Shown here: one piece after another, positions 420-63,718 of the stretch
Numbering within the stretch: the stretch's first letter is position 1
Layout of the letters: each line of letters begins with the position of its first letter
Assembly: GCF_009834535.1 (NCBI RefSeq)
Contig: NC_045696.1
Location: 9,798,001-9,862,000, forward strand
Origin: Camelus ferus
Lineage: Eukaryota
Direction: 5' to 3'
Length of the DNA: 64,000 nucleotides
The notes under the pieces: generated by a model
The model's database searches: none
Seen by the model: the letters and a program-made list of their open reading frames with translations, nothing else
Told to the model about the DNA's origin: nothing
Program-made: the position numbers and the translations under genes

Positions 420-609
420 TCACTTCCTCCTCTTCGTGGAATACAGCTTCTCTTCAAGTGGGACTGGGACGATCCCTTCACACTTTTTCACTTCCTGAGT
501 CAGAGGGTGTTTTACAATATTCGGTCTAATCACATCAGTGTCTCGAGACAGATACTCCATTATGCCGTCAACAGTTGTTGTTGGCGCATAAAAATCCACC
601 AAGAAATAC
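420..609 (-). CDS. MRPS6: MRPS6 coding exon 3 (YFLVDFYAP...[21 protein letters not shown])
   Basis: Acceptor TTTTATTTTATTGCAG|G, TGA at 422-420. 45+140+190=375 nt, which is 124 aa plus stop in frame. Cys105 is present. Confidence 0.97.
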
Positions 610-14901: not shown

Positions 14902-15041
14902 CCTCCTCGGGTGTGCCGCTGACTATGCGAGGACATCTTGTAAGGAAGCGCCTGTTCGCCCAGGTTCTCCAGGTTCCTCACTACTGCCCCTCTGTCCATC
15001 AGGGCTTCTAGAGTACGTTTCAAAGCAGCAGCAGTCTCTGG
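14902..15041 (-). CDS. MRPS6: MRPS6 coding exon 2 ([47 protein letters not shown])
   Basis: 140 nt, acceptor AACAG|CCA and donor GG|GTAAGT (phase 2). The peptide matches the ribosomal S6 core (LENLG..ALPY). Confidence 0.97.
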
Positions 15042-15129
15042 CTGTTTGGCGGGTTTTGTTTTTAAAAAGAAGAAAAAACAGATCAGAATCATTATTAGAA
15101 CTGGAATGATTAAGTGTGGTCAGTTCCAA

Positions 15130-15550
15130 TCATAACAGCTCTATTGGGAGGGATCTTTGGGGAAAAACAACAGAAATTATCTTTGGCTAAGAAAGTTTAA
15201 AAAAGAGAGAGAGGTATTTATTGTAAGGATATGAGATAGCTCACAGATACGAAGGAAAATCTGAAGAAGCAGGCCTCGGAGAGTCCAGGGACCAGAGCAG
15301 CTCCAGGGATCTGGGAGGCAGGAACTAACTGAGTGGCTTCTTCAGAGCACCTTGGCCAGGATGAATCAGCGCCAGTCACTGCCAGTTCTTGTAGCCCAGG
15401 GCTCAAAATTCAAATTCCAGGGGAAGAGCATCCTATTGGCAGGACACTTTGATTGACCATCTCACCAAAACCATATACAGACAGTGGGAAAAGGGGTTGT
15501 CCCCCAAAGAAAAATTGGGAGATTGTAGCCAAAAGGGGGAAAGGATGAGT
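15130..15550. mobile_element. Old MaLR (MLT1-like) LTR relic
   Basis: Recalled MLT1-like motifs (TTTATTGTAAGGATATG..., CAAAATTCAAATTCCAGGGGAAGAGCATCCTATTGG). Boundaries approximate. Confidence 0.5.
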
Positions 15551-16839
15551 AAGACCCAACCTCTGCCCTCATGGGGCTTACAATCTAATAAAGACATGAA
15601 CACAAAAACTCATGTAAGAAGACCAGAAGGCAGAGTGCAGGAAGTGACACAGGGACCAGAGAGCTCATGAAAAGAGAAAGCAGATTCAGTTGGAAGAAGG
15701 GTTTCATTAGGAGAGCCGACTTATAAGGAGCCCTGGAAAATGACAATGGGAGATGCAAAGAACAAATGAGCCAGGCGCTGAGTAAAGAAGCAAAGACAAG
15801 AAAGTATTGAGGAAATAGCTAGGAGTCCCATCGGTGACGTTCAGGACAAGGGAGGACTGAGAAGTAAGACTATAGGTTGGGTGCAAGTATATAAATAATA
15901 AATATCTGTTATGAAAAACAAAATTCAAACAAAATAGAGTCCCATCATCCAGAGATAAAATTCGTTAAACATTCTGATGAACTGCTTTCCAGATATCTCT
16001 CTATGCATATGTTTACACCAAAAACTTTAGGAAGAAAAGACACTTTACAATGGTAAACAGGAAGACACAACTAATGAAATGTAGAAAATGAGGAAGAGGT
16101 GTGGCAAAGGGGGCACTAAATATGGGGTTGTTATTAACAGCTAAAAAGAAATCTGGAGTAGCTGGCCAGGGACCACAGAAGATGAATCTGGTTTAGGACA
16201 TGCTGAGTCTGAGATACCCACAGCTTCTCCAAGTTAACCTCTCAAGATGTAAACCTTAAGCTCAAAACAACAGGGCAGGTTAGTCATCTGCCGAGAGGGG
16301 CTATCTGAAACCTTGGCAGTAGGTGAGATCACTGAGGGGAATGTAGAGATCACTGAGGATGAGATCCACAGAAGCTTGGGGAGCACAAACACTTGGCGGA
16401 CTGACAAGAGGACTTGAAGTAAGAGAAGCAAACAGCAGAAGGTAAATCAGATCTGCCCTGTCACAGAAACTAAGGGAAGAGGCAGCCTCCAAAACGACAG
16501 GATACAGGGTGGAGATGAAGAAAAAGCCACAGCGTGGTGACCACATGGTCACTTAGCAAGATAGGGCTAGAAGTCAGATTGCAAAGACATCCATGGTAGA
16601 GGTGTGATGGCAACGACGACCAAAAGAAAGTTCCAGAGCCTGAGGGGCAAACATATTCAAGCAAAGTGTTTGAGGAGAGAGAAAACTTAAGCAAGTTACT
16701 AGTTAAAGGGGGAATGAATCAGTCAGAAGATAAAATGTAAGATGCTTTAAACAACGTCATCAATGGCCAACATGATTTGCTGCGTGACTGCTATATGCCC
16801 AATGCTAGTCTAGTGTTCTAATGTCACATAGTTAATCTT

Positions 16840-16867
<28 letters not shown>
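16840..16867. repeat. (CA)n microsatellite
   Basis: About 14 uninterrupted CA units. Confidence 0.95.
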
Positions 16868-16870
<3 letters not shown>

Positions 16871-18102
16871 CAGAGTAAAGAAGGTTTACAGATTTGGAAA
16901 CTGGGACCCTGAGAGATGCCATAACTTTGAGATCACGTGGCAGTTAGCAGGTGGTAGGGCCTGAGGCAAAAAAAAAAGGAACACTGACAAAAGTCAAGTC
17001 AGGGAAAGGAGGCCAGAGGACACCTGGGCAAGCAAAAGGGAACTTCTCAAAGACATAAATGAAGAAATGCAAGTAAAGAAATCGTGAAGTGCAGGGGTGA
17101 ACTTATGAAAAGCCTACCTTCCAGTGGCTCATTTTAGATCAAATGAAAAGAAAACTGCAGAACAAATTTTAAGTATGCATTCCAGTAGCCCAAGAAGAAT
17201 CCACAATATAGCTGTATATTTTCTTTCTGACAAATACTGCTGAAATGCTGTGAATATACTAAGTATTAGTTTAAGGTTCAGAAATAAAATTTCTCCTTTC
17301 ATTCCTATTGTAGCCCACCATAGACTTCAAAAATACCTAATGAAAATTATGTGAATTTATATATTTAATCACCCTTATGATAAACGGAAATTTCATGAAA
17401 ATAAAAACAGGAGCCAACTATCTCTTTGCATTAACACTAACTAGGTAAAAGTCTACAGCAATTTCTCCTTATGATTGCAAACAAACATTCTTATATAGTT
17501 CCAACAAAATGGAGACTAAATTCTCCTCATATTTCACTAGCAGGTATTTACAAATTTTGCAGAAACCTCATTCCTAACAACAGTTAATATTTCATTTCAT
17601 TTAAAATACTATTTACTGATACAATTAACTGATAAGGTGGATGAACAGTCTATCCAAATAAAGAATGGGTAAAAAAAAAATACTTTGATTGATTATAGTC
17701 TTCTGATTAGCTACTCAAAGCATTAATTTTAATTTCAGTTTTGCCTGATTAAAAAGGAATATATCTCAATACCTCTTGTTTAAATTCCAAGTGAAGTGTT
17801 AACAGTGTGAAAAATGGAGCACCCTCTTCTGAAGTAAGAGCTTGTAAAATAAAAGATTTTCTTCCGTCCAAAAAAGGGTAAAGGCTACCTAACAAGAATG
17901 CAACTTAGGAAAATATCAGAACACATTTCGACCTCAGTAATGTCAAGGTCAAACTGTAGACTGCTTGAATGACCAAATTCATTTCACTGTAGCTTCAGAA
18001 TACCCAGAAGTGTAAAAAGAAGAAGGGGCTAAAAGAGTCCCTGTTTATTAAGGGAGCTCAACTTGTACCTTACACCATATACCTCACCTCATCACTCTAA
18101 AT

Positions 18103-18292
18103 CAAGGGTCAGCAAACAAAGCCTGTGGCCCAAATCTCGCTCACAACTTGTTTCTGCAAATAAAGTTTGATTGGAGCGCAGCCAGCTTATGCATTTATGT
18201 AGTGTCCGCGGCAGCTCTCGTGGTAAAAGCAGACCTGCAGTTACAGCAGAGACTGTATGGCCCACAAGCCTGAATTACTTACTATCTGGCCA
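18103..18292 (+). mobile_element. MER58A-like hAT-Charlie MITE
   Basis: Starts CAAGGGTCAGCAAAC; internal GCAAATAAAGTTTGATTGG and GAGACTGTATGGCCCACAAGCCTG. Confidence 0.7.
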
Positions 18293-19627
18293 GCTTCTGC
18301 TCTACCTTCTAACGGGCTGAGGGAAGCTGGCAAAGCCTCAATCCACTCACCTTAAAATGCACCATGTGAACCTGGGCCCCTGGGGTACAGACAGTGCACT
18401 CCCATGGGATCAGTCCTCAGGGAGACACGCAGGGCACCAGCCTAATAAGGAATATCAGCCTGACTGTTCAGATCATCACAGGACTCAGAAGGGATTCTGC
18501 AAAATCAGCGCTCCATCCACCAAGCTCCTAATATATCAATACAGGATTTCAAATTGCCTCATTTGGTGAAACCTACATATTTATTAATATAAAATTTTAG
18601 GCTTCAAAAAAAAAAAGTTCTGCTCAATACAGCACAATGTTCAATTTGTAAAAACATATGGTCTACAGGAAGCACATGATCTTGCTGCCGTAATTCTCAT
18701 TTACAAGGTCTCTGAACCACTTAATTCCAACTATTCTAAGAGAGGTTGTGCACACGCGCTCCTTATAGGCTTCTCTCACCCCATCTGAAAGCAGCTCCCT
18801 CAGACTTTCCTCCAATCCACCATATGTCAATGAAACACAATTTTGTTACAGCACAGATTGGAGGGCGGAAATCGCTCACTTGAAAAAAATATGGAAAAGA
18901 AACAGTGAATGAATGTGAATGGGAGCTAGGAAAACTGGACTGCAGTCCCTGCTCCTCCACTAATGTCAGACAACCCTGGATAAACTATTAAAATTTATCC
19001 ATTTTAAATTGTGCCTCACTTTCCTCGTGTGCTACATTAGTGATTCTCAACAAATTTTCTGTTTCTGTAAGCTTCACGTATACATTTATGTCACAATTCT
19101 CAAAATATCCTGGAGTCACCCAATGTTTTTTAAAAGTCTCTCTTTTCTTTCTGTGTTCCTCATTCTGACCTCCTCATCACCCAGAAGTGCCCCAAACCCC
19201 AACCCCAGGGACTCCTTGTGTCACCCCGTTTACTTCCACACAGCAACACTCTTTCATCACTAGAATGGAAGCTTCAGGAGAGCAAGGACTTTTGTCTATC
19301 TGGTACACAACTGTACTCCTTAAGTCCACATCACGAAGCTGGCACTAGAAATGGTTGTTGAATAAATTAATGCATCAATTGTACCTCCCAAAGAGGGTCT
19401 CTTGCTTACGTACTCCAGTTTCCCTGCTCCACCAGGAATCTGAAGCTTCCTCCTTTCTCTAATACAATTTGAAGCTACTTTTCATAAACACAAAGCTCAC
19501 TATCAGGGTAGTGACTGCAATACTGAAGCAAAATTATAGTACTAGTGTTTTTATGTTTACTTCACGTAGCGCCAAAATGTTTTTTTTTTTTAAATACAAA
19601 TTTGCAGTTTAAAAGAATCTAACAGAA

Positions 19628-19825
19628 GGAGCTCAGTGGCAGAGTGCATGCTTAGCATGCACGAGGTCTTGGGTTCAATCCTTGGTACCGACATTAAATA
19701 AATAAATAAGCCCAATTACCTACCCCCAAAAAACTTAAAAATATGTATGTATAACTAAATCACTATGCTGCACACCAGAAATTAACAAAACATTGTAAAC
19801 CAACTATACTTCAATTAAAAAAAAA
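19628..19825 (+). mobile_element. tRNA-derived SINE (Vic-1-like) joined to an L1 3' terminus
   Basis: A box GCTCAGTGGCAGAG, B box GGTTCAATCC and (AAAT)n-CCCAATTACC body, followed by L1 tail TGCTGCACACCAGAAATTAAC...CAACTATACTTCAATTA(n). Confidence 0.8.
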
Positions 19826-20591
19826 GAATCCAGAATTCATCCAATAGAAGTGAAACTAAATATATTTCAAAAATATAAAGTTCAAATATATATAAACATA
19901 AATGTTAAACTTAGATTGTTCTGATTATTTGCTGATAACATAAGAATTTACACTAAACAATACTTCAAGAAAATTCACCCTAAGAGAAAATTAAAACCAA
20001 ATTTTGATCTTATTATTAATGATTACTCAAACTACTGGTATCCAGGCCACAAAAGCCCACCTTAGGGAAACCTCAACAGCTGACTTCAAATACTTTCAGG
20101 GCTACTATGCAAACGACAGATATGTCTTATTTTGATTGGACCCTGAGAGTTTGACTGGAATCAATGGGTAAAAATTACAGAGAAACAGAGCCTTGACATA
20201 TAAAGGACACATTTCTGAAAATGACAGCTCCATGGACGTGAAATAGGCTGCCCTGTGAAGCAATGACCTTTCCGTCACTCGAAGTGCAAAGACTGGGATG
20301 ACCATCGGATCAATCTTTCCACTGGGTGGGAGGTTAGACTTGCCAACTTCTAAAGCCCCTGCCAAGATTAAATTCTAATACTATTCCGGCACCATTCTGA
20401 AGGACGTTCTGAAGTGAAACTGCCTTTTAAAAAACACTACGATTGCATGGTGGTGAGAAATACACTGACTACTAATAAAGTTTGGTGCTGGTGCCTAGAT
20501 TTATACTAAGACACCAGCTGTTTTACCCACTACTGCTTTTGCAGTGATCCCCTAAAAAGGTCTCTGAGAAGTCCAAGGCTTTTCAGGTCAC

Positions 20592-20800
20592 TTTTTATTT
20601 TAATTGAAGTATAGCCAGCTTACAATGTTGTGTTAGTTTCTGGTATAGAGCAGAGTGATTCAGTTATACATATATATATTCTTTTCATATTCTTTTTCAT
20701 TACAGGTTATTACAAGTTTTGAATGTAGTTCCCTGTGCTGCACAGTAGGACCTTGTTTTTCATCTATTCTATATACAGTAGTTGGAATCTGCTAATCCCA
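20592..20800 (-). mobile_element. 5'-truncated L1 (~210 bp 3' end)
   Basis: TTTTAATTGAAGTATAG...TACAATGTTGTGTTAGTTTCTGG L1 tail with degenerate TSD TCAG(G/A)TCAC(T/A)TTTT at 20583 and 20802. Confidence 0.85.
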
Positions 20801-23039
20801 CTCAGATCACATTTTGAAAACTGCAGTTCTAGGAATTCTAATGGGCAAAGTTTCTATGACAACAAGGAGACAAGGAAAATAAAAGGAAGTACATCTCCCC
20901 TTGCCCCCCAAATAAAATTCCCAATTCAGTAAGGTTATTACTAAGCTAATAATTCACAGAAGTACCACAAACATCACCATAGGTCAATGACCAGTATTTA
21001 ATCTAATTCAACATATTTTCATCCCAGAAGAGAAGCATGTCAACAAAATTATCTTGTAAATTAGATTCTCTGGCCAAGACAGTTTTGAGCCAGTGGCCCT
21101 AGGGTGCACCTGGGTATCACTACAAAACCGTCACAGCCTACCAGGAAATGAAAATGACACAGAATCCACAACACATAGTGGCATGTAGCATCTACCTACC
21201 TACACCCTGCCTTTCTCATGTTACAAAGGGCCGTGCAGCAACCAGGAGCAAGTCTAAGATTTAGGAAAGCAGGAGCCAGGTCATAAAACTGTTAAAATCT
21301 GTGAAAATGTAAATGTAAAAGCCTTTCCCACTCTTTGTTGCATCTTAATTCCAAGGTTTAGCTCCTTAAGAAAATATCCTTGAAATTTGCATTTCCAAAT
21401 ACAGAGAAAGTCCCAGGAAAGTCTGCATTGAGATTCTCACAGCAGTTTGGAAGAGAAAATCTGTGAGTATCTTTCAACAGTAGTATTAGCTTCCAGGGAA
21501 GTTCTGTCACTAGCAGACCTTGGTGGGAAGAACAGAATGGACACCACCTACCTCAAAATGTGTGAAGTGCCGGCCCTGCCTAACACCATCTACGGTGCCC
21601 AACTCTGAGAATGATTCCATGGGAACTGTTTTATCAAATATTTTTATGACTCAAGAGAACCCCTTTACCCCACAATTTATTGAATCAAGAGCTGTAGTTC
21701 TCCTGGTAATTAAGGGCAAAAATTACTAAGTACAGAAGCTATTTTAAAAATTAGAATAAAATTCACTAAGGGCAAGTCTAGAACAGTAAAAAAAAAAAAA
21801 AACCACAAAGCTAAACAAATACATGCTGGAACATGATTATACTTACCTACAGTGGACTATTATACACTCTGTAACTTGTAGGTAAGTGACTAGAAGAGTA
21901 ACTTACAGACTCTTTGAAGGTAAAAGATAGAAAACACTTTTAAGAACTAACTGCTATACTACTTTGCCCATGAATCATATTTAACAGATCATTTACCAGA
22001 AAGAGAGAATAATCATGAACAAAGACTTTACAGACTTTAAAAAGCGGGGGAGAGAATGAGGGAAGAAGAGAAGGGAACCCATCAATACACATCAAGTGTA
22101 CTAGGAAAGTAACAAATACTGTAATTCAGTGAAAAACTGCTTCTTTTTATAAGCCACTGCTGTGTGCTCTGCAAAATGAAAAATACCTCAAAAATTTTAA
22201 ATAATGCTAAATACTGCAGATTTACAGCTCAGATATATCAAGTGGTCATTTAACCATTAAAGCAACAGAGCTCTAAGAGTTCCTTAAGTATGTACTAAGT
22301 GAAAAGCACTCATGAATATGATATTCAACTTACACAATCACCTTTTTGAGACACAGTTATGGGAGGGGGGCACCTATAAATCCCCACTGGGGAATGATTT
22401 TAAAATAATCTTAATGGCATAAATCAGCTGTAAAAAAGAAGGTGCATACATCCACACCTGGAAATGGAGTGACAGCAAACTGAATGATCTCTTATAAACA
22501 CACCAAACTCTGTGGGTATCAGAAATATAGGTTGTACTTTAAGAAACTGCCATTTGGGGGGATCAAGAACAGTCCAAATATTGACCATTTCTTAAGGCTT
22601 AACCTAATATTTATCCACAAACATTCCTTTCAAAGTGTGTCCCTCAAGACAAGTATTTCCAAGTTTCTCACTATGAAATCCACCTCTAATAGGGTAGCCA
22701 TGGGGATATGAAATACAAATTCCCTGCCCTTTAGAAGTCTGTGATGTAGATATGCAGACACACGTAAGTCACTAATAAAAAGGAGGGTGAAATATTTCTG
22801 ACTGGTGAGTTAGAGATGGCAGACTTCAGCCAGATCCAAAAGACTGAGCATCTCTGTAAGAGGTGGAAGGACAGTCAGTCAGCATCCTCTCAGAACAGGT
22901 TGCACTAACAGGATGACAGGAAGACGGTTCTGATAGAATTTATATTTGGGGTGGAATCGATGTGGGCACTGTGCTGGGTATAGGTAGAATCCACTGCTTT
23001 TTTCCACTCATGGCAATTTTTTGCCTACATTAAGATTTC

Positions 23040-23560
23040 AGTGTCTTCAAACACACTTTTGGTAAAAATGTCAACTTTCTGGAGATCAAATACGGCAATC
23101 TATATTAGTTTAAAATGTGTATACCTTCAATCTATGGCCATTTTTAGGAAATTAAGAAAACGGCCATACCGAAGTATAAGGATTTAGCTATGAAAACATT
23201 CACCACAAAGCTACCAGGACAGTGAATAGATGGAAAAGTATTTGTCCACTAACAGGAGTCTGGTTCAATAAAGTATTTTCACTGATTGAACAACTACTAT
23301 GCAGCCATTAAAAAACAAGATGTTGATCCTTATACATGGACATGAAAATATTTTAAAAATAAAATTAAAAAAAATCAGCATGTAGGGTCAATCCAGTTTT
23401 TTTCTAAAAGAAAAAAAAGTACTAACGTACATGTACATTTAGAAAGTCTACATGAACATACAGCTGAATGACATTAGTTTTCCACAGGTAGTAAGATGAG
23501 AGGTGTATTCTTTCTCCTCTTTGCTTTATTATCTGATTTCTCTTACAATGAGCAATGAAA
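23040..23560 (+). mobile_element. Ancient L1ME-like 3' fragment
   Basis: ACTACTATGCAGCCATTAAAAA and similar L1 3' motifs, highly diverged. Confidence 0.55.
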
Positions 23561-24529
23561 GATGTTTTAAAAATTAAACCTGGGGAGGGGGAGGGCGGAT
23601 TCAGTTTTATTTTGTTTTAAGAATTTCTTCCCCTAAGTCTATGACAATATGCCATAATTTGTGAATTCTGTGTCAAAGCCCTGAAACTATGCCTCAACGT
23701 TTACAACTCATTCACTGACTCCACATCATTTACGTTTTAAATAATGTAATAAGCAGAGAGGTACAGATGGAAAGCTTTCAGTGGTTCCTGAAAGAGCCGT
23801 GCAAGCTATACTTCCAGCATCATGAGCTATTACAACTGGCTGCTCTGCCCCTTGGGAATCAGAGGGAAAACGAATCTAGTCGAAGACAGAAGCCCAGAGA
23901 TCTCTGTTTCTAGAATCAGGGCAACCAAAGAGATGTTATGGGACAGGGCCAAGTTTGGCCTTGAGAACACAGCAGCCAATAAAAGCAAGATGGTAAGAAA
24001 AACAAGAAAGAGGAGCCTGCCTATTCTATGGTCATGCAACCAGGACTGAGGTTCTGGCGATCTGGGAAATGTAACAGAAAAACGTATTCTCTGAACAATG
24101 TGATGAAAATAAAAACAACCCAGGGAAGAATGCAAGAAAAGAAATCAGAGGAGTAAGGATCCAACAATTACCAAGTTTGGCAAAGATCAACGCCATGCCA
24201 AAAGCAAAGTGCAAGAAATAAAACAGAGTCATAGTTCACAGCATTGCTGAATTTGTAACTAGAAAAGCGGTAGGATGGTTGGTAAAGCACTTCAGCTGCA
24301 AGGCAGGTGGAATGCCTTTAAATCATAAACTGGACTTACTTTAAATGTAGTGGGCATCCAAGGGACCCCCTGAAACTAGTCTGTGCTGAGACATCAATAT
24401 CAGTATTGATATCAAAAGATTACAAATGAATAAATTTAAATCCACTGGTTTTCAAGGTCTCAAGTCAAAGAATGTCATTCAGAGGCCATTTAAGGCCATT
24501 TAAGGGGGCTCGTCAAGGCGTTCCTCTAG

Positions 24530-24680
24530 AGTACATTAGAATCACCTAGGGAGTTTTAAAAGTGAGATGTCTATGTCTCACCCTCAGATATTTTTATTCA
24601 GTTGGCCTGGGGATTCATCAATCTTGGGCACTAGGATTTTTTTAAAGCTCCCCAGGTGTGGACGAAGGTGAGAACCACAT
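24530..24680. mobile_element. MER5A-like hAT MITE
   Basis: CATTAGAATCACCTAGGGAG...TTTTTAAAGCTCCCCAGGTG...GAGAACCAC. Confidence 0.7.
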
Positions 24681-26142
24681 TCTAGTAGGAAGTTGGCTGG
24701 CTTCTTTCTTATCACCCCTAAGATGAATGATTCTGGCTGAACTGCAGTTTATAAAGGATTTTCAGCAATGATCTCCTCCAACTCTAATTTAAGGAACATA
24801 AAAGCTCCACTTTTCTCACAGTAATAATGTAGCCCCCCGAATATGAAATGACAGTCCCCAAAGGTCACTACTTGTGGTTAATTCTACCTGAACAGCTGGA
24901 AAAATACCAAAAATAAGGTACCCAGGTTCACTGTTCTGAGAACATTCCAAAATTCACAGTCTTTTTACTGGGAAATTTCCATTTCTATCCTCCTCATTCC
25001 CTTCCAGATGCACTTACGGATGAATAAAAGATGGGAAACAGGAAGACTGGCAGGAGTCCTGGTTACTATGGCAGCAAGTGAATGAAATGCCACAGCTCAT
25101 GAAACTGATAGTGAGAGCAGGCATCAGGTAGACATCATCAAGCCGTGCCTGTCCTGCTGATCGCTCTCCTTCATGCACAATTCAGTTCCCTGCCTTCACC
25201 TTATATTTCAACCTGTTCAGAGAGGAGGGGTGGAATGGAATGACAGGAAGATCAGGAAAGGTGAGAATCAGCAAAGGATTCTGATGTAGAGACAAAAGGG
25301 TTAGAAGAAATCTCTATTTAGATCATGTGAATCTTCTAAGCATTGGTGTACGGGTTTAGCAAAAGTATCAGTAAGTTGACTGGGTTAAGAGAAATTTTTT
25401 AAAACATGCCTTGATACAGTCAGAAACTTGGGCTTTGGCAAGAGAGTCAGATTTGCATACCTTGCTGAACAACAGACCAAAAGTGTGTCCACCACCAAGC
25501 CACTACAGTGGTGCTCAGTGCAAGTGATAGGATGAAGGTACCACTCTGAAAAGCAGGGAGGAGAAAGGGTATAAAAGCACAGAGGAATTAAAGGAATAAG
25601 ACATCCTTCAAGATTCAGCTACCTCCTAGGAAAGTGTGCCTTTCCTCCATAACCCCATGTGTATCTCTCTCAATCCACATACATCTTGCAAGTGTAATTA
25701 CGTAGAAGTACATCCCCTTCCCTAACTAAGCCTCTTCAAGGTTGCTTCTTACTCATCTTAGTAAAGATGCTGGAGATGCAAAGAATCTGGCACATACTCA
25801 ATAAATGTTTGATGAACATGTATGTCAAAAGAATAAATGGAAAGATGAGAGATGGAAGTTGCCAGCTGTACTTTATTCAACTGAAAAGAGGATTAAACCA
25901 AGTAATAAAATTCAAGGAGAAATAAGACCTTCATTGCAAAAAGGAAAACAGCACCTTACATGTAAATTTTTTTCTTTTAAAGGCGAAGATGCCTAACAAA
26001 TTTAAGCATATCCTGTTAGTCAAACACAGAGATGTACGATGTACAGTCAAGGAGCTAGGAGCAGGAGAAAGATGGAAACAAAGATCCAGTCAGAAACTCA
26101 AAAAGGTGCCTCCAAACTTCTAAAGATTCTTGGGACATAATT

Positions 26143-26192
26143 AAAAACAAAAACAAAAACAAAAACAAAAACAAAAACAAAAACAAAAAACA
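26143..26192. repeat. (AAAAAC)n repeat
   Basis: About 8 units. Confidence 0.95.
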
Positions 26193-26817
26193 ATGGACAT
26201 TAGACTCCTACTGTGTACAGAAAATATCAAAGCAAAACTCAGACTATAAAAACCTCTGGAAGTGGAGCCAGCAAGTCCCATATAGATACAACAGTATTTT
26301 AGAGGGTATGACAATAAAAATTCATATTAGAATTGGAAGAAGAATAAAACCCAAAGGAATGGTAGCTCCCATTCTGTTTTATTTATTTCTCATTCCAGTC
26401 TTACATCAGTAACATCTCCCCTGGTGTACTGTATTCAACATGGAGGCCACACATAAAAAGGGACATCAATTGCCTCAAAGTTGCCCAGGAGAAAAAAAAA
26501 AAAAGATGGTAAAGTATCTGAAATCCATGTCCTGTGATGCACACACCAGAGAATGGAGATTAAGCCTGATTCTGAGACTGAAAATTGAAGACTGTATTTA
26601 TCTTGAATATTTATCATCAGATACTCAAAGAGAAAGAAAGCTACACTTCAGGGGCATAACTTGGACTACCGAATGAAAGTCAGAGGCGAATTTGAGGTCA
26701 TAAGAAAACTCTTTAAAATCAGAACTTTTACAAAATGAAATGAACATTCAGGAGTGGGGACTGATAAAGTTCTAGTTCTCATGGGTGGTGGCTGCATAGA
26801 TGTCTGCTTCACAGTTA

Positions 26818-27425
26818 CAGTGGATGCTCATTATTCGTGGATTTCAAATATGCCAATTCACCTACCAAAATGTCTGTAACCTCCAAACCAACACTCCCAC
26901 TGCAGAGTGGTGAACAGTACGCACATTCCCAGCTCAGGTCCAACGTGATGCTCTCTCTTCTTGTTTCAGCCCCCACTATGAATAAGAGTTCTTTTCACGG
27001 TCTATGTAGTGCCATGTTTTTCACACTTTTCTGCTTTTTTTGCTGATTTCACTGTTTAAAGTGGCCCAAGTGCAGTACTGAAGTACTTACTGTCTAGTGT
27101 TTCCAAATGCAATAATATATGATGTCCCTTATGGAGGAAATACGTGTATTAAGTAAGCTTTGTTCAGGCATGAGTTAGGGTGCTGCTGGCCTTGAGATCA
27201 ATGTTTATGAACCAACAATATATTTTAAATATGATGTCTTTAAACCAAGACACATGAAACACAATTATGTACTGACTGGTTGACCAAAATGTGGTGACCA
27301 GCCAGAGACTGGCAGGAACCTAACCATGCATTTCCCCAAGGGGCAACGACTTCATATTCACTAATTCAAGTGTTAGGCGCAACTTTATGGACTGTAACTA
27401 CCACAAATAACAATAATCAATCGCA
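26818..27425 (-). mobile_element. MER82-like TcMar-Tigger element
   Basis: TA-preceded terminus CAGTGGATGCTCATTATTCGTGG, a degenerate inverted copy near 27400-27425, and internal AAGCTTTGTTCAGGCATGAGTTA. Confidence 0.75.
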
Positions 27426-27779
27426 TTCACTACTTTGTACACCTGTTCATGTTTCATGGACTGAGAATGTATGCCAAATTTCACAAAAATATTTTGATAG
27501 GTGGGATTTGTGCTTGGTACAGAAAAATCAAATAGACAACTTCTAAGGCCCCTTCAAAATGGGAGTAACCATTAACTTTGCACTTAAAGAGATAAACAGA
27601 ATTTTGAAACTCCCGTTGTGCTTCTGGTTGTCAACATGTTCTTTTAAGATAAGACAGAAATGGGCAATAGACTCTGAAATATCAAGTTTCAAATGCTAAG
27701 TGGAGAATGGATGTCAGGATTTCCTAGTAAGTTAGAGGATTCAACACAAGCATATACAAAAGAGTTGGAGGTCTTAAAA

Positions 27780-29610: not shown

Positions 29611-29814
29611 ATATTTTTATTTATCAATGTTATATATACAACTCAATTCTCAGTCATTACCTGCTAGTCCATGTTAACCAAGGTAAATAACAATAATCAG
29701 CAGGGTTCTCATTGGAACTATTCATGAGATGAGAGAAAAGAAACAGATACAATCTCTTGTGGGTAGACGTGTTCATACTGAAAATACTTAGTCACAGAAA
29801 TGTAAATTTTTCCT

Positions 29815-29820
29815 TTTATT
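29815..29820 (-). terminator. Probable distal SLC5A3 poly(A) signal AATAAA
   Basis: CTGTACCAACTTTGAATAAAAGG on minus strand, with upstream UGUA and a downstream U/GU-containing stretch. Confidence 0.7.
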
Positions 29821-32800
29821 CAAAGTTGGTACAGAAGTGCTAACATTTCCATAAAATAATTAACTATACTTCAATTACAGGACAAAATACCACAGAAAGG
29901 AATATACTTTGCAAGAAATGTAGTTCATCTTAAGTTTCCAAATACTTGTAAAGGCTAATGCAGCAGCTGGCAAAATAACACACAGTACACAAAGAACAGT
30001 GTATTTTACAGAGTCAGTAATGAAAACTGACAGCTCTTTAGCAGATTTGCTTCATTTTTTTTTTCATTTTTTAAACAATAACACTTTTAAAAACACATTA
30101 AACCAAGATCATACATGTCTACAATTTTAAAAATCAGGTTGTATACAATAGGTTAGAATAGTCAAGTTAGAATTGTCACGTATGGTTAACAATCTTAAAT
30201 CTACAATTTCAACTGTACTCCTTTCAATATGGAAGTAACTTGGTTTATATTCTACTTTCTGCTTGCAACTAAAACATTGTACAATGAGATGGACCTGATC
30301 AAACCTTAAAAAAAAAAAAAAAGCCGTGGACAATGAAGAGTACACCAGAAATTAGTTTACAATTCAAAAAACTCACCAATAACGCAACAACTTCATTTAT
30401 AATCACATTTGGTCTACAAGGCATAACTGACAAAACGATCCATGTACACAATACAAACCCCCAGTGCACAGACTGGTCTCTCACAGAGCATCTGAACAAG
30501 CTTAAGAGGCAGGACACTGGGAGGAACATTTTTCAATGTAGACATCTTTTAAAAATGCTTTAATACATACATATCAAAATTACTAGATAAAAGCAGCAGT
30601 ACTCTGCTGACATTTGGCTTAAAAATAAAGAAATGAATGAAGCAATTTCACAGGATATTAGAAAAGGAATTGATTTTCTTCTTGAAGAAGACTACTAACT
30701 TTTGCACAGCAACTATTTTTGATATCCACCTTATTAAAAAAAAAAAGAAGAAGAAGAAGCACGGAGAAGCATAACATAGTTCATATGTGATTGCCAACAC
30801 AGGTCTGAGTAACAGAAAACGGGATGTCCAAGCAAAGAATGGGTAAATCCCCGCTCTATTTCTGAACTCTGTTGGCAATCTATAAACTAAAGCAATATTG
30901 GTGGGGGAAAGAAGGGCAACAGATTCCACACCATCATCTGACACTAATGTAATATGTCATTATTAAAAAAAATAAAGCTTTTGCATTTTAACAACCCCAC
31001 AGAAAAGTCCATGAGCAAAAAGACTTTGTTGATCTGTTTGCCACTCAAGTTAGAGATCTCACAGTGAAATTAGAAAATTCTAATTATACATATTTACATT
31101 ACTAGGACTACTTTCACCTAGACTAATTAAAGCAATTTTCCGTGGAATTATAGATGAAAGATACTCTGCCAAAGGAATCTTGAAAAGCGTTCTTTAAGGT
31201 CTTAAAAACTATTTTAAATTTAAAAACAACATTTAAAGGTACAGAACACATTCTATACAGGCCTAACAGGTTACACGGCTTTGCTTTATCACATATTGCT
31301 AAGTCAAAGATGTTCCTCAAACCTCTCCATTTTCCGGCATGTCTGGTACTCCCCTCTCCCCTCGTCCTGCCAAAGCCTGAGGTTTCACATTCTAAAAGAA
31401 TGCCGTAGGTACACACCTGGTGACTTCTTGCTAGAGCGGGGAATCTCTCCCTCCAAGTGCTCAGATTAATTCTTCTAAACCATGTCCCATTAGTCTACAC
31501 CAGCTATAATCTTCATTCCATATATTATTAAGAGTTGATTATCCCTACGAAGATAAATATACAAAACAGAGGAGAGTGGGAACAAAGGTTCTTCTCTCCC
31601 ATTTTGAGAGTTCTATCTTTCGACATATGGGCAAAATTCAAGACACAGATACACTTATTCCTTGTTGATAAACAGGGACTATACAGGTGAAGAAAAGTGG
31701 GGAGTAAAATAAAGGCAATGCTGAGTACAAGAAAACACATTATGTCCTTCTTTTGCACTCACATTCACAGACTTCATCTAACCTAGTCTCGAAGTGGGTA
31801 TTGGGACAGGCAAACGAATCCTTTAGGCTCTTACGATCATTGTGGAATGCAAAGTATAGATCATTCGGCAGATCTGTCTCAATTAGTTAGATACTCAGTA
31901 CGCTTGGATCAAATTCTGCTCTATTAAAAATGAAGGGCAATCAAGCATATGAAAAAAATAACTTCATTAAGTTTAGATTTACACAAAGATTAAAGATTAG
32001 TATTTGCTCTATTAAAAAGTGAGATTTCTCCATATTTACAGGATACTACTGACAAGAGGTAAAGTTTCCTAAAGATTTAAGATTAAAAAAACAACTACAG
32101 ATTCCAATGGCCCTACAGCTTAAAACAGGAGCTTGTCACAACGTCCCACCCACCAAAGCCTCGAAGTCTGCTCCTGCTTCTTTAGTTCCAGCCCACAGAC
32201 CCCGTCATAGCCAGTCACCCCCTACTATGACTGCAGCATTCTTGACACTGGTGTTCTCTCCTCCATCAAAGCAACACAAATGTACTCGGATTAGCACACT
32301 GAATCACTTAGGATTTAGGACCCCCATCCTGGGTACCTCGCTGTCTGGGGATCTTACTACTGCGGTCCTCAGCCTAACAACTCCGGAGACAAACACGTGG
32401 TGGGCTTTCTATGCCTGGCACTTGTGGGATACTGAGAATACTGTTAGTCTTGTGCTTTCTACATGTGGAGACACACACATGAGGGAACACGGTTTTGTGC
32501 TTTCTACAGGCCTTTAAGCTTTTTCCTTATCATGGAATGTGAAACGGTTGTCACATATATGTTCTCAGATATGCCTATCAAACCTACACTGGAAAAATGA
32601 TAAAGTTAAAACATACTCACAGAATAAGCAACCTTATACTTTTAATTAAAGATAAAAAAGAAACAAATACAGATGAATAAATAACATTTAAGCTGCAACA
32701 CAAAGTAGAACTACCTGGTTTCCTTGACCCTAAATAAAGGCTGCATATAAAGTATGTAAATATAAATGTATTTTCTTCACTAGTTATAACAAAATTTAAA

Positions 32801-35224
32801 AAGAGAAATTGTAACAAGTAAGAGTTATCTATCAAGAAAGGGAAAGGTGTAAACTAGCATATTCAATATTGGCAACAGGAAGGCACTAATCAAAACATAA
32901 ATTTCAGAAGCTGATTATATTATGGAACACCCTATAAAATGGCCTTTGCTAATTTGGGATTTCAGTAATATAGATAGCAATGAGCTTAGTTTCAGTTTCC
33001 AACTATTATAACAAAAAAGTAAGCTATTAAGGAACATTCCACTTATAGACGTTTAAGCTACTTTGATATATTGAAAAATTATCCAGACTGGTTTGTCCAG
33101 AGGCAATTTAAAAAAGTAAACACTCCTTTATCCAGCAGCACTAGCACTAGGGTACAAGGTGAATTTACCAAGATAAACATGTCTCCAATAAAGGTGTTGG
33201 TATCTACTATCAACTTGTGCTGTTGCTGAAGTCACTGCAAAATGTATTTCCCTTATCAATAAAGTTCACTGACTGTAAACTGTTTTGAACTGGGGGCGGG
33301 GCTCCATTATCCCGGGCAACAATTACATACAGTACAGTGCTTCTCCTCTGAGGACAGCGAAGCCACTGCTCCTACACTAACAAGAAACCGAGACCACTGT
33401 GCTTTGTCTTGACTTGCTCTCCAGTTGCTTATTTATTCTCACATCACTTTCTTCAAACATGCTATAAATCTAGGTAACCAAACCAAACTTTAAAAGTCAT
33501 TACATAAATTAAGGTTATTGGTTAAGTCAACAGTCTCAGATTACGTCCTCCCCAAAAAAGTAAAGTGCAAGAGATGAGTAATGATCCAGATACAACCAAC
33601 CATTTTTGTTTACTTTTGAGTAAAAGACTATAATGCTAATGTTTAGGGCTGTTAGTTATCAGATAAATGGGGTGCTTAACACAAAACAAAAAGCTAAATC
33701 CTATCTTTTATAAAGGATTTGAGATGGAAACAGAAACATAAATTATATCAATTCTCACAACATTCCTTTAAAGGTGAATCAGTAGTTTAAAGCCTTAATT
33801 CCCAGCTCTGGAGAGAATTTTAAATAAAAACATTTATATGACTGTGAATAATGGTGTGGGACTCAGCACTGGTAAAGCCTATTAATTATTTTGAACCTTA
33901 GCTAAATCCTGTTCTGGAGTCAAAGTAGCTGAATATCTATCTACTCTTCCAAGAGAGGTGAGTGTGACAAAAAGCATGCCAAATTAAGAGAAGTTACCTT
34001 AATGGAGGCAAAGGGGTTTGCAGCCCTGAGTTATGTCAACCAAGTCTAACCAACTGTAGTAATCAAAAGATCACTTTGTAACTTAATCCAGCTTCATATC
34101 TAACTAGTACAAAGGATTTCTCTAAATGCCAACTGACTAGTTCCAACTTTTTACCTTTAATTACTGCGAGAACAAGGCTTTTTGGCATCAAAACAAACTC
34201 CATTCCTCTCTGCACTGTGATATCATCATTTCAAAGGGGCTGGTGTGAATTTTAATTATTGTTGCCTCCTCTCTAATTTTGAAAAAGGAGTTTTGAGAAT
34301 AAAATATTAATGAATTATTAGGGCTCTTATCATTAGTGAAAACAAAGTCTGAGAAAATAATTCTGGAGAATAAATGGTTTAAACTAATAGAAATTTAGTA
34401 TATTTAAACACAACTATATTTAATGAATCATTATTTGGATCCAAGTCTTCAAAACTGAGGCAAAGCAGCACTTTCGCACACCATGGCAGTAAGTCTGAAA
34501 GTGAATTAAGCTGACAAAAGATCAAAATGGGAATTTGATAAGTATTGAAAGACAGAACAGGTGAATAATTAAAGCAATGTTTGAGGGCAGACAAATAAAG
34601 GGGAAGACCAGTCTCTCTGAATAGCAGGTGGACATACATACAAATAGGAATATATCGTATTTGTAAAGTCTGCTCAGGCTAACATCAACACTGAAATGAC
34701 TTAAGCAATTTAAAACCTAGCTAATAAGAAATTTTATTAGCTAAAGTATCAGTATGGAATATTGTCATTTTAACCTCAAATATGTTAATAAACTCATACT
34801 TTACAATATTTAATATCAAACCAGGGTTTAACAGGCTGGATCTTATTCATTGGTACCCTAGTCTATACGGGGAGGGGTTTAAACTAGCTGATAGCAAAGA
34901 TACTTCAAGTTCTAGAGTTCAATGAATATGATTCTACATCTAACACATATTAAGCTAATTTTGTCCTTTACCAACTTGTTAAGTGTGTATCACCCAGGTA
35001 CTTCTCAGTATCTCTCTTAATAGTTTTTATGACTTTTTAGGACAGTTTTGTCCTGGCAAGTCTCTGTAATCACATAATTTAACGGGACTGGTACTTATAT
35101 ATCTCTCAACCCAAACTCAGGGAATGGTGAGGTGTAACTACTAGATACCCACGTGGTCATTTCCAGCCATCATACCTCAGAGAAAAACAATATAAGGGAG
35201 TAAAGTATAAGAAAAGCAAGTAAG

Positions 35225-35371
35225 GGGGGAGAGTTTAGCTCAAGTGGTAGAGTGCATGCTTAATATACACAAGGTCCTGGGTTCAATCCCCAGTGTCTCC
35301 TCTAAAAATAAATAAGTAAACCTAATTTACTGCCCCCCATAATACAAAAACAAAAACAAACCAAAAAAATT
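35225..35371 (+). mobile_element. Full-length tRNA-derived SINE (Vic-1-like), antisense within the SLC5A3 3' UTR
   Basis: GGGGGAGAGTTTAGCTCAAGTGGTAGAG...GGTTCAATCCCCAG, A-rich tail, and perfect 15-bp TSD AGAAAAGCAAGTAAG (35210-35224, 35372-35386). Confidence 0.92.
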
Positions 35372-38300
35372 AGAAAAGCAAGTAAGCCGAACACTGCCAA
35401 ATGGGAACATTGATGGGTCTAACCTTTTAGTAGCTAATAATACAGCCAGTCTACAGGGTAGCAAAAGAATGAGAATAACCTATACGCTGCATTAAATTAT
35501 ATGTAAAGAGAAAGGGAAAGATCCACACACCCCAAGCAGGGAAGACAGCAATGGACTGAGAAATGTAGAGGCTAACCACCCTGCCCTGGACTTTCAAGCT
35601 CTGCCTTAGGCTCAGGTTAGAGAATTGAGTAACAATCTTCCCACTCAATTCTTAAAATGTGAAGTTTCATGAAGTGATAGGTCCCTGCAAATTACTTAAA
35701 GTGCCATTCCTAAGAGCTAGGATTTTGTGACCCTGGCCAGCCTTTTTTATTCAAAAAGACAAATGATCCTTTGAGCCAAGTGAAAAGGAAGCCTTGGGGA
35801 TCAAATCTGCTGGATTTAGGCCAAAGGACACAGCACCATTCCTACTGCTTGATGCTTCTCCAACCTGAAGATAAGAGTGATAACCTCACCATGAAAGAAA
35901 GGCTGGGAGGAAAGATTGGCTCAGCCGTTTCAAAAGCACTTACTATCCCAGGGTGGGAGGACAAAATATTCTACATGAACAGGGAAATTAAAGGTCCCAC
36001 AAAGGAATCAATAATCATTCTGCATGTCAGGGTAATAATCTCTTCTCATCAGTTCTTAGGACAAAGATTGCCTAACAGGACAAAAATTTAAGTCCTAGGG
36101 ATACCACTAACAGCAGGTAAGAATGTATTTCTCCACTTCTGAACACCAGTGTCCCCACTTCATTTTGACTCTTTTCATCAATATTATTCTTAGCCAATTC
36201 TGAACCTTAACTTGAGCCAATATGTAAATATATACATGTTAATGTCTAGATATCAATGTCATCATCTAGGACCCATTTATTGATGTAAAGTATCACTACT
36301 TTGCTAGCTTTAAGACAGATCATGTATCATTCCATGAACAATCATTCTTATGAAACACGGACTTCAGAATGGTCCCCTGAAATTAAGTTGCAATCAGGAA
36401 TTCACATACTTATTCAAGCACATTATCTATTACTGGAAAGCAGTAAAAGGGCAAGCTTCAGGGACTTCAGTCTAAATAAAGTGATGTTTATACTGGCAAG
36501 AATAAACAATCCTAATGGATATGCTAATAATCATTCCTTATTTACAAACATTAGTGCTCTAAACTTGACCTAATGCTATATACACACAAATAGACATGAG
36601 ATGACGTATTTTATGCATCATACTAAACAAGAGCAGAGAGAAGGCAGGGGGACGCTAGCGCTCCAAACTATTAGGGCTCAACATTAAATAAAGGGGGGGA
36701 AAATCCACTTAAACACCACCTACTTTTTTATGCTTTTAATAGAAGGGGTAAGAAAGCTGCCCAGTCATTATGTCAATTCTCCCTGTTGAGTTACACAGCA
36801 ATGTGTTCAGAGTCAAAGGAAATTTTAATTCCTATAACTTAACGCCAATTTGAAAAGTCTAAGATCCTATTATTTCCCCAAATACCAAAGGTTGCCTCAA
36901 AGGAAGGACAGTTCCTTTGAGAAAAGAAGAGGACAAACCAGGAGTCCAGATTTGGACACCTGATTTTCTGCTCTTCCCAATAACCTTGTAGCCTTGGATA
37001 TGTCACAGCTTCAGCCTCCACACAAGAAAAGGATGGTCCCTATTTATTTGGCCCCCAGCTTATAAACCTTAAGAATGAAACTGAGAAAAAAAATTCTACA
37101 AGGCACTCACTCTAAGCTCTCAGAAATCATGCTATTCATATATGAATTTTTAATTTTTTTTCATATACAGACTCAGTCCATCAGAAAGCCTCCTGGAGAT
37201 GGGAAGACATTATGCTACCTGATAATTTCTAAAATCAACTTTGGACAAATCAAGTCTATCATAATGAAACTAGTTTACAGAATACAAAAAAAATGTAAAG
37301 TCATTAGGACTGAGTTTTGATTCAAAATCTACAAAAGTATCTAAAAAAGTAATAATTTTCCCTAAAGAATACAAGATTAATAAAATCATGCAATTTAAAA
37401 AAATATCAGAGATTATGGAAAAGTCAAAGAAAGTAGATACACAAATAGTTTCCTTCATCTGTCATGGAGGAAGGACAGTGAAGAGCACACACAAAGAACT
37501 ACATATCTGTTGCGCTTTTCTCAAACATCTTTTGTACGTACCCTGTCCTCACAAAGGGGAATCAGTCTGTGAAAAACAGACTCTCATCCACAAAGGCTGC
37601 AACTGGGTACCAAGCCATGTCAAGACAGAGGGTCTTACAATTACACAAGTCCTGTAATCTCCACAAGACACACTACTAAACCCAGAAGTTCTTGTTCATG
37701 GCACCTTCTGAACATACTATCCATTCTACAGAAAGACCATCTGACAAGCTACCAATGGCAAAGCATGCACTCTTGAGTTTTCTGCTACTAATGGCCAGTT
37801 TGCACTGAAATATCCTCATGTTCTATGTCACTAGGTTTTTAAACAAAAATGTAGAGGCTGTGTACAGATGGCAAGCCTTTTGAAAAAAAGTAAATTAGGG
37901 AAAAATAACTCATCAAGGATACAATATGATCTTAAAATTAAATTTTCACTCTAAAAACTCAACCTCAATATATCATCATACAATTAAGTAGGGCAACCCA
38001 GCCAAAGGGCAGCGTTAATTTTTCTTCAAATTTCTGTACACATCTTCCAAATGGATCCACTTGGGAAAGTACCTGGCTAGTAAAGTATGTAAGTATGTTA
38101 CCAATGACAAGAACAAAGCTAGAGAATTAATGGAGTATGAGTAATCACCTGTTCAGCTTAAGCTGCCTGAACACTGCTTAGGGGCTGCTAATTCCCAAAC
38201 TATATAAACAATCTTAATTTGGTCAGTATTTTAAATTTGGGGGTCATCAGCAACGCTTACTTCATTTTCTCCCCCATAATCATTTCACAATACAGTCATG

Positions 38301-39034
38301 ACACATAACTTTATAAAGACAGACTTGGTGGTCATTTGGGTATGGTTCACTTAAACTTCAAAGAAAAAAGAAAAACAAAATAACCGGAACAAAACTGTTT
38401 CCCAACATTCTATACACTGGTGGTACAAGAATAGCTACAGGAAAACATTCTTCTTTTCTTTCAGCATTCCGAATCCATAGGCTCATGCTAACAAAATAAA
38501 CCTGGCAAACTAACTTGTCCTGAAACAAGTTCCCCACAAGCACATGTTAGATTTTCAGTACATAATTGATTATACAATGTCTACAAATTCACTTTTTTTG
38601 TTTTTAATGATAGTAGGGATTATAGAGACAGAAAAAACTTCAAAATGAGCAAGTCTTCTACTTCAGGGTAAGAAGGTCTACCAAGATTTGGCAGTGCAGA
38701 CAGTATACCTTATTCATGACATCTTAGCATATATTCTGCTCTAAGTGATCTATGAGAATAATTGGTCTCTCCTTACTTTGGTATGAAAAATTTTAAACCA
38801 CATGTGCACAATTCAGTCTGTTAAACAAGTTTTACTTCATTTAAGCTGAAATTTTACTTTCATCCATCTCTGGGAAAATAAAGTCTTGCAAATAGATGAT
38901 TTTCTGCTAAGTAAAATTTGGCTAAAACCTACAGCGTAAACAATGCCTGAGAGATGCAACAGTTACATAAGGTGTTTTTTTTTTCAAAGACCAGTATTTT
39001 CTTTAAGTTAGTGTCTCATCATATCCTTTAAAGT

Positions 39035-41191
39035 TCATAAGGAAAAATAAACAAACATGAAAATTCCAAGGGAACACACAGCAAAAAGTCCAATATTTAG
39101 TATTAGTTTAACTTGTGGAGGTTCTTCCAACATTTGTAAACAAACAGCCTCCTCCTCCATCAGGTCTCTGAGACTCCTCTTGCTGAGGCTCTTACTCTTA
39201 AAGCCACAGAACCAATCTATGAACTTCCAGTACCGGCCTCCATCCTCTGTTTCTTTCTTTCTTTCTTTCTCACCCATGAGAGCTGCTTGCCCATTGGAAT
39301 AAGCATCAACTGGTGTTTCCGCTTCTGAATGACCTAAGGAAGCCACTGGGTTGCCCTCCTCTCTGCAAGTCACCAACAGATTAACATCTTCAGGCTGCAG
39401 GCCCTTAATACTATCTTCAGATTTCCCATTGGGAATGACATTGTTGATGGCCTCACTATTCTCACTGCATCTCAGAATGCTCTTCTCTTGCATTTTGTAT
39501 GGTTCGTCTTTCGGGGAGCAGCTCTCCTTCGTCACCAGGATCTTCTTAGACCAAAAGGTGGTGGTACGAATCTGTTCCTTCGTGGGAGGTGGTGTGAGAA
39601 GGCTAACAATTACAGTAATAAGTCCTGTGACCCAAAACAATGCTGTGGCCACATACATGTAATGGATGTCTTTGATGAAGCCTGGCCTGTTATCAGGTTG
39701 GTCACATTCTGGGGCACGGTAGGCAAAGGCCAGTGTCAAACGGACTGCTCCAAGAATAAAGCCAGCCATTCCACCATAGAAAGCCCCTTGTTCATTGCAG
39801 CGCTTCCAGAAAATCGCCAGAAGGAACAGGGCCGCAACTGGGGGCGTCAGGTAATCTGCTACCTCCTGAATATAAAGGTACATCTGGCCTCCTTGCATCT
39901 CCACGATGATGGGCACCCACGCAATGCTGATCACCACCATAAAAGCTACAAATATCCTCCCCACAATCATTAGTTCTCGGGAGCTTGCGCTTTTGCGTAT
40001 GAGTTTGTACACATCGAGGGTGAATATGGTACTGGCACTGTTAAAGATAGAGTCCAAGTCACTCATCAGAGCTGCAATCATCACTGCCATCATTAAGCCC
40101 CGCAGGCCCACAGGAACCAGCTTCATCACCAGACGTGGGTAAGCAATATTAGAGCACCCAGCTCTGCTTCCACACACTTGCATGCAGTGCTCTGGGTTGA
40201 TGCAAGCTATATCATCAGCAAACAGTATCCTGGAAATCATTCCTGGGACAACTATGATAAACATTGGCAGAAGCTTCAAGAAGCCAGCCATTAGAGTAGA
40301 GCCTTTGGCATGAGCAATGTTTTTAGCCGCTAGGACCCTTTGCACGATGACTTGGTCAGCACACCAGTACCATACTGAAGCTGGGGTCTGTCCAAGAATG
40401 AATCCAGGCCAAGGAACATCTTCATCTGTTGGATTCCGCAACATTTTCAGTGCATCTTTCTTAGGGTGGACATTACAAGAATTTGTGTTGGAAAGGTTGT
40501 ACGTCAACAAGATGGAGGTGACATTGGGTGAAGCCAACATGTACCTTCTCTTAACTTCCTCAAACCCGCCAATCTCCATCATGCTAATAATCATAAGTGT
40601 GAGTGCCCCCACGATCATGAGCAGAGCCTGCAGAGTGTCTGTGTAGATTACTGCAACAAGGCCTCCGGTGACAGTCAGCAAAGCAGTCATGCCAATGAGC
40701 AGGATGACAGACACATAAAGGTTCCAACCCAAAGACTCCTGGATAAAGAGGGCACCCGAATACAAATCCACTGAGAGCTTGGTGAAGATATAGAGAATCA
40801 GAGACAAGGCTGCAAAATATACCTGAATCCTATGGCCACCAAATCGCTTGGACAAGTATTCAGGCATGGTGTATACCCCTGACCGGATGTAAATCGGGAT
40901 AAAAACCCATCCCAGAAGTTGCAAAAGCAGTAAGGCATTGAATTCCCATGCGCCCACTGCAAATCCACTTGCAGCTCCAGATCCTGCCAGACCAATGAAG
41001 TGCTCACTCCCAATATTGCTCACAAACAGAGAGGCACCAATTGCTACCCAGGTCATAGAGCGCCCCGCCAGGAAGTATCCACTCACGGTGCTTCTATTAG
41101 ATTTCCACATGGCAAAAAAACCAATGCACATGACCAGGATAAAATACAGGGCCACTATGGCAATGTCTGCCGTCTCCAGCACAGCCCTCAT
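39035..41191 (-). CDS. SLC5A3: Sodium/myo-inositol cotransporter 1 (SMIT1), 718 aa, intronless CDS
   Basis: ORF starting MRAVLETADIAIV with SLC5/SSF motifs (GYFLAGRSM, SNIGSEHFIGLAGSGA, WYWCADQVIVQRVLAAKN), multiple TM segments and the terminal helix ...GIFMFVYFSL. The first ATG is at 41191; the ORF track starts at an upstream TTG. Confidence 0.98.
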   Translation of the reverse strand: MRAVLETADIAIVALYFILVMCIGFFAMWKSNRSTVSGYFLAGRSMTWVAIGASLFVSNIGSEHFIGLAGSGAASGFAVGAWEFNALLLLQLLGWVFIPIYIRSGVYTMPEYLSKRFGGHRIQVYFAALSLILYIFTKLSVDLYSGALFIQESLGWNLYVSVILLIGMTALLTVTGGLVAVIYTDTLQALLMIVGALTLMIISMMEIGGFEEVKRRYMLASPNVTSILLTYNLSNTNSCNVHPKKDALKMLRNPTDEDVPWPGFILGQTPASVWYWCADQVIVQRVLAAKNIAHAKGSTLMAGFLKLLPMFIIVVPGMISRILFADDIACINPEHCMQVCGSRAGCSNIAYPRLVMKLVPVGLRGLMMAVMIAALMSDLDSIFNSASTIFTLDVYKLIRKSASSRELMIVGRIFVAFMVVISIAWVPIIVEMQGGQMYLYIQEVADYLTPPVAALFLLAIFWKRCNEQGAFYGGMAGFILGAVRLTLAFAYRAPECDQPDNRPGFIKDIHYMYVATALFWVTGLITVIVSLLTPPPTKEQIRTTTFWSKKILVTKESCSPKDEPYKMQEKSILRCSENSEAINNVIPNGKSEDSIKGLQPEDVNLLVTCREEGNPVASLGHSEAETPVDAYSNGQAALMGEKERKKETEDGGRYWKFIDWFCGFKSKSLSKRSLRDLMEEEAVCLQMLEEPPQVKLILNIGLFAVCSLGIFMFVYFSL

Positions 41192-63548: not shown

Positions 63549-63718
63549 ACCCGAATGCACAGCGCGCAGCTCCGAACCGAGCCGGCTCCGGGGACGTACG
63601 AGGTCGGGGACCGCGGGGACCAGGCGGGGGACTGCGCCGGAAGGCTCCCAAGCGGCGAAAGCACGCTCCGGCCGCGCGAGCCCGGGCTTAAAGGCTCTGG
63701 CAGCTGCGCAGACGGCCC

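Follow-up and report, generated by a model that had tools for sequence, protein, structure and literature searches.

In a window of 64,000 nucleotides from Camelus ferus (assembly GCF_009834535.1, contig NC_045696.1, positions 9,798,001 to 9,862,000 of the forward strand; all positions below are counted from the first letter of this stretch), the coding sequence (CDS) of SLC5A3, which encodes the inositol transporter SMIT1, contains a donor-like GT upstream of the codons for its last transmembrane helix (TM14). Splicing from this site (exon end 39274) to the acceptor of exon 2 of MRPS6 (15041) would replace the end of SMIT1 by a tail read from a second frame of that exon. The reading that we favor, with a probability of roughly 0.6, is that this 39274 to 15041 junction is a splice path that is cryptic or little used and yields an unselected tail, present here at most as a minor or noise-level event and not as a conserved dual-coding isoform. 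We place it above an isoform of the type published in human, and above selected dual coding of the exon, because the donor and the open frame are at chance level, the one bird compared has no GT at the site, the tail is not conserved and no protein carrying it was found in the collections searched. The anatomy of the locus, the frames, the chance levels and the non-conservation in two comparisons are read directly from the sequences, and from them we infer the splicing logic and the low usage of the junction. In short, the sequence permits the chimeric junction but does not call for it.

The candidate donor and the second frame of MRPS6 exon 2

The elements that would make up the chimeric transcript are the following.

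39035..41191, minus strand: SLC5A3 (SMIT1) coding sequence, 718 aa plus stop, intronless, from the open reading frame (ORF) call
39268..39277, minus strand: candidate 5' splice site within the CDS, TGG/GTGAGA (the slash marks the exon boundary), exon end 39274, phase 1, a sequence-level candidate
39050..39106, minus strand: codons of the last hydrophobic segment (TM14, residues 696-714), from hydropathy, lost in the predicted chimeric form
14902..15041, minus strand: MRPS6 exon 2, 140 nt, acceptor ...aaacag/, donor AGG/gtaagt
14923..15041, minus strand: MRPS6 exon 2 in its second reading frame, made up of the split junction codon and 38 further codons, closed by TAG at 14925-14923

The candidate donor cuts the CDS at nucleotide 1918, that is, after Met639 and one further base (...ATGG/GTGAGA), and the Gly640 codon has the T of this GT at its third position. 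A preliminary description of this DNA, which had set the exon end at 39274 after Met639 in phase 1, is correct to the base in this respect. It had also located the donor in the loop before TM14, and the hydropathy profile agrees: hydrophobic segments with peaks at residues 514-532 and 696-714 flank the site, leaving it in the loop spanning residues 533-695, before the last helix. At the level of sequence, the donor hence falls in coding exon 2 of SLC5A3 between TM13 and TM14, and residues 650-717 show a weak alignment to the last helix of human SGLT1.

The same description had called the donor a good one. Scored with a simple and crude 5' splice-site matrix, it reaches 2.94 bits, as compared to 6.17 bits for the genuine donor of MRPS6 exon 2, and equal or higher scores are obtained by 89 of the 4142 minus-strand GTs in the window (2.1%), which corresponds to an expectation of about 2.6 such sites for a CDS as long as this one. 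The site exists and is the best GT of the CDS, but it is a donor-like sequence of ordinary quality, at chance level. Directly 3' of the candidate GT there is a purine run with repeated GAAA (39271-39245, minus strand), which encodes a Glu/Lys-rich stretch following Gly640; purine runs of the GAAA type often act as splicing enhancers.

Joining 39274 to 15041 in silico by script places a stop at codon 679, yielding a predicted product of 678 aa with a 39-residue tail (the junction codon plus 38) that is identical to the one originally quoted. The TAG that closes the second frame is built from a His codon (CAT) followed by a Ser codon (AGT) of the MRPS6 frame and therefore depends on a synonymous site. 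As had been stated, the stop at 14925-14923 lies 21 nt before the last junction, this being the length of exon 2 left after it (exon end 14902). Under the 50-55 nt rule, a stop that close to the last junction spares an mRNA from nonsense-mediated decay, and the geometry of the putative chimeric mRNA fits escape from decay because the stop precedes the last junction by 21 nt and exon 3 is the last exon.

Whether the open second frame is itself informative was addressed by random synonymous recoding of exon 2 with its MRPS6 residues kept constant (20,000 draws per scheme). The second frame stayed open for at least 38 codons in 9.0% of the recodings with uniform codons and in 7.6% of those with SLC5A3 codon usage, so that its openness does not exceed chance given the MRPS6 protein (P = 0.076-0.090). 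A Pfam search with the second-frame tail returned no family. The open second frame is a by-product of the MRPS6 codons, and the chimeric tail, as far as its sequence indicates, is probably unselected and disordered.

Comparison with other species and with protein collections

The cross-species comparison is based on one bird for the donor and on one other mammal for the tail, no mammalian DNA being present among the matches of the nucleotide scans. In the genome scan, the single locus recovered from 78 pattern matches was a Rhizobium contig with 28% identity, which was discarded as irrelevant, and the metagenome scan yielded two loci from 120 pattern matches, one of them an avian SLC5A3 and the other weak. 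The ORF of the avian contig (L002) is 98.6% identical to an owl SLC5A3 and shares 79% nucleotide identity with the CDS of the window. It encodes the same residues around the site, but its Gly640 codon is GGG and provides no GT donor.

The tail can be compared with a 186-aa ORF (P0002) located on an assembly contig of 1079 bases, which is colinear with window positions 15078-14586, crossing exon 2 in the second frame with intron sequence on either side, and which therefore represents orthologous DNA from another mammal in unspliced form. In the second frame it shares 71% identity with the tail of the window, with two Cys instead of three and with a Pro at the position of the stop. Because Pro replaces the stop, a chimeric ORF in that animal would continue into exon 3. 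With regard to the conservation of donor and frame, on which the preliminary proposal depended, the frame is thus open in one other mammal, but neither the stop nor the CCC triplet is kept there and the GT is absent in the bird. Thin as they are, these conservation data appear to point against selection.

Among the protein collections, a search with the tail peptide against 1.84 billion representatives retrieved only two matches, the genomic ORF P0002 and an unrelated repeat protein, and thus no protein carrying the tail; likewise, a 40-aa translation of the window queried against a collection of 5.8 billion clusters found no protein with the tail among those of 71-2000 aa. When SLC5A3 residues 560-718 were compared with the same number of clusters, 101 of 105 relatives covered at least 96% of the canonical region, and all four short fragments extending past Met639 were canonical. 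The SLC5A3 protein of the window was found as an identical entry, in a cluster shared with the SLC5A3 of sheep, dog, ferret, bat(s) and horse; among the members listed (30 of 481), 25 measure 718 aa, and the remaining five comprise three incomplete sequences from birds and two proteins of 717 and 774 aa. All of these searches are weak negatives, because a 678-aa form would be hidden inside the canonical cluster.

A literature search for an SLC5A3-MRPS6 exon 2 junction or chimera found none, SLC5A3-MRPS6 appearing among the papers listed only as the name of a locus in genome-wide association studies. Isoforms of human SMIT1 without TM14, which the preliminary description had mentioned, are indeed on record: the available text of one review reports that human SLC5A3 has been proposed to yield SMIT1-2 and SMIT1-3, with altered C-termini and without the last helix (PMC7849949), and TM14-less human isoforms are also stated in the available text of a second review (PMC12347752).

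Nested layout and a second donor-like site

The remaining features of the locus are given below.

63504..63548, minus strand: coding part of the exon 1 common to MRPS6 and SLC5A3, MRPS6 ATG at 63548, 15 codons, from sequence and frame
420..609, minus strand: coding part of MRPS6 exon 3 (last exon), stop at 422-420, Ribosomal_S6 positions 58-90
39190..39199, minus strand: second donor-like site within the CDS, AGA/GTAAGA, exon end 39196, after Lys665 plus 1 nt, phase 1

The product of the SLC5A3 ORF belongs to the Pfam family SSF (PF00474, E 1.3e-158) and its residues 6-537 align to the human SGLT1 structure 7sla (E 8.7e-218), while frame 0 of MRPS6 exon 2 corresponds to positions 16-55 of the Pfam family Ribosomal_S6 (E 1e-5). 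Exon 1 ends with the donor CGG/gtaagt, after 63504, and exon 3 is the last exon because the MRPS6 stop falls at 422-420. All MRPS6 exons and the SLC5A3 CDS lie on the minus strand in a single transcription unit and, since MRPS6 exons flank the CDS on the same strand, the SLC5A3 coding exon is nested inside MRPS6 intron 1. The first exon is described as common to both genes and as coding for MRPS6 only in the available text of a published report (PMC5387827). When MRPS6 exon 2 was searched in its own genome (about 2.09 Gb, 2043 contigs), its own locus was the sole match, and there is thus no retrocopy preserving the spliced form.

In view of this nested same-strand layout, the following path is mechanically plausible. 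A transcript spliced to the SLC5A3 acceptor might escape cleavage and polyadenylation in the SLC5A3 3' untranslated region (UTR); the uncleaved transcript could then be completed only by splicing from an internal GT to the next strong constitutive acceptor, which would be that of MRPS6 exon 2. The SMIT1 produced in this way would lack TM14 and carry instead a tail that is unselected and probably disordered.

Several further observations concern the splice sites and the 5' end of this unit. The acceptor of MRPS6 exon 2 is atypical (15042-15085, minus strand), with a pyrimidine tract about 25-45 nt upstream followed by A-rich sequence up to the AG. The apparent SLC5A3 acceptor, cacaaag/TTTCC, lies 8 nt before the ATG, a position assigned from the sequence together with a narwhal gene model (P0117). 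If exon 1 (63548-63504) is joined to approximately 41199-41188, the MRPS6 ATG opens an upstream ORF of 18 codons, the TGA of which overlaps the SLC5A3 ATG (ATGA). An ATGA overlap between the stop of an upstream ORF and a downstream start is a layout typical of termination-reinitiation. Around the common first exon, G+C content rises to 0.61 (62001-64000), as compared to 0.34-0.50 elsewhere in the window, which is compatible with a CpG-island promoter.

Downstream of the candidate donor, splicing from the second donor-like site at 39196 would enter MRPS6 exon 2 in the same second frame as splicing from 39274. The avian contig retains a GT at this second site, as GTAAAA, and two gene models, the narwhal P0117 and one from a bird (P0102), diverge from the canonical protein after "CGFK", exactly at the site equivalent to 39196. 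The C-terminal tail of the narwhal model maps to window positions 8730-8533, on the minus strand of MRPS6 intron 2. Between exon 1 and the SLC5A3 exon, the model also includes a further exon, with a counterpart at 52811-52698 (minus strand). Residue identity of these extra stretches to the window is 84% (52811-52698) and 52% (8730-8533), the final 20 residues of the latter counterpart being nearly identical to the model, and both may be either real exons or simply alignable DNA. As evidence for the 39274 to 15041 junction we rejected both P0117 and P0102, which are automatic models with another donor and other tails, as well as a patchy automatic model from the Iriomote cat (P0107), in which SLC5A3 is fused to exon 3 of MRPS6, read in the MRPS6 frame.

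Rival readings and relation to known systems

A number of points weigh against a cryptic or low-use path. Although at chance level, the candidate donor ranks first among the 123 GTs of the SLC5A3 CDS, in a scoring scheme as crude as the one described above, and it occupies exactly the place from which the TM14-less isoforms reported in human must diverge. The second frame is open in two of two mammals, which are not independent, and a Cys pair or triplet adjoins the junction in both. The bird is a distant relative and the comparison with it covers its SLC5A3 only, without the arrangement of this gene relative to MRPS6. Finally, the identity threshold for clustering is 50% or 90% in the protein collections, and a 678-aa form, being 94% identical to the canonical one, would hide in its cluster. 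Real usage of the junction, even substantial, is possible.

The strongest competitor, tentative on the sequence but deserving consideration, is a real and regulated minor isoform akin to human SMIT1-2 and SMIT1-3, in which a donor after Met639 or Lys665 would be joined to MRPS6 exon 2. It predicts a short 3' UTR and a working transporter of 13 helices whose tail is cytoplasmic, and the sequence of the tail need not be conserved. Such an isoform would be consistent with the best GT of the CDS falling in the loop 533-695, with a stop whose 21-nt distance from the last junction would spare the mRNA under the 50-55 nt rule, and with a nested same-strand layout in which the next constitutive acceptor is that of MRPS6 exon 2; the narwhal and bird gene models also leave the CDS in this loop, at the other donor. 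Set against this, those models are automatic and carry different tails, no tailed protein occurs in the collections searched, and the support is at the sequence level. The distal exons of the human isoforms are reportedly nearer to exon 2 than is the second exon of MRPS6.

A bolder version of the same path is improbable. It would have SLC5A3 pre-mRNA that escapes polyadenylation spliced from the Met639 GT to MRPS6 exon 2, here and perhaps widely. The result would be an mRNA, stable and short in its 3' UTR, for a 13-helix SMIT1 whose tail comes from the second frame of an exon of a mitochondrial ribosomal protein; osmolyte transport would in this way be coupled to the MRPS6 transcription unit by a regulated switch.

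The evidence leans against the selected dual coding of exon 2 put forward in the preliminary description, with a palmitoylated Cys cluster anchoring the C-terminus instead of TM14: the open stretch of the frame covers 38 codons in the window and the whole exon in one other mammal, with a Cys pair or triplet adjoining the junction in both, but an equally open frame arises in 7.6-9.0% of random synonymous recodings, the stop position and the cluster (CCC versus CC) differ between the two mammals, the tail matches no family and no other protein, and the donor GT is absent in the bird, which makes this reading very unlikely. Palmitoylation of CCC as a substitute for TM14 is, for its part, pure inference; S-palmitoylation has no consensus motif, and the Cys triplet is not retained in P0002.

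Returning to the favored cryptic or low-use path, its practical value lies in a precise junction and a second candidate donor, at 39196, that can be counted quickly in RNA sequencing data of this species. Among 24 public sequencing runs listed, 20 contain the SLC5A3 stretch, six of these being recorded as RNA, and one run holds raw reads. If the junction were used meaningfully, it would connect the nested MRPS6 gene with TM14-less SMIT1 isoforms that have been reported but hardly studied since; a 3' UTR put at about 9 kb in the preliminary description would be exchanged for a short one, and another exon would join those read in two frames. A TM14-less SMIT1 made through a donor inside exon 2 has already been reported, and it is the particular 39274 to 15041 junction that would be new, if real.

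The closest known systems are the human isoforms SMIT1-2 and SMIT1-3, with which the putative chimera would share a donor in the SLC5A3 coding exon, the loss of the last helix and a short new C-terminus from a distal exon, according to the available text of both reviews (PMC7849949, PMC12347752), which cite Porcellati et al. (1998, 1999). The chimera is here a prediction from DNA, and the accessible portions of those reviews give no donor or exon coordinates with which it could be matched. It would also resemble the cis-spliced read-through chimeras of adjacent or nested genes, which involve one pre-mRNA, one first exon and the constitutive acceptor of a downstream exon, differing from them in that its upstream site is an internal GT of a coding exon and not an annotated exon end. 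In CDKN2A (p16INK4a/ARF) and GNAS (XLas/ALEX), dual-coding exons are translated and constrained in both frames. As in these genes, one exon would be read in two frames depending on the upstream exon; in contrast to them, second-frame translation is here a prediction, and both the length of the frame and its Cys cluster differ in one other mammal. With respect to the canonical SMIT1/SGLT family (PF00474; 7sla), the chimeric form would retain all of residues 6-537 that align to SGLT1, and it would end in the cytoplasmic loop, before the last helix (residues 696-714) that canonical SMIT1 keeps.

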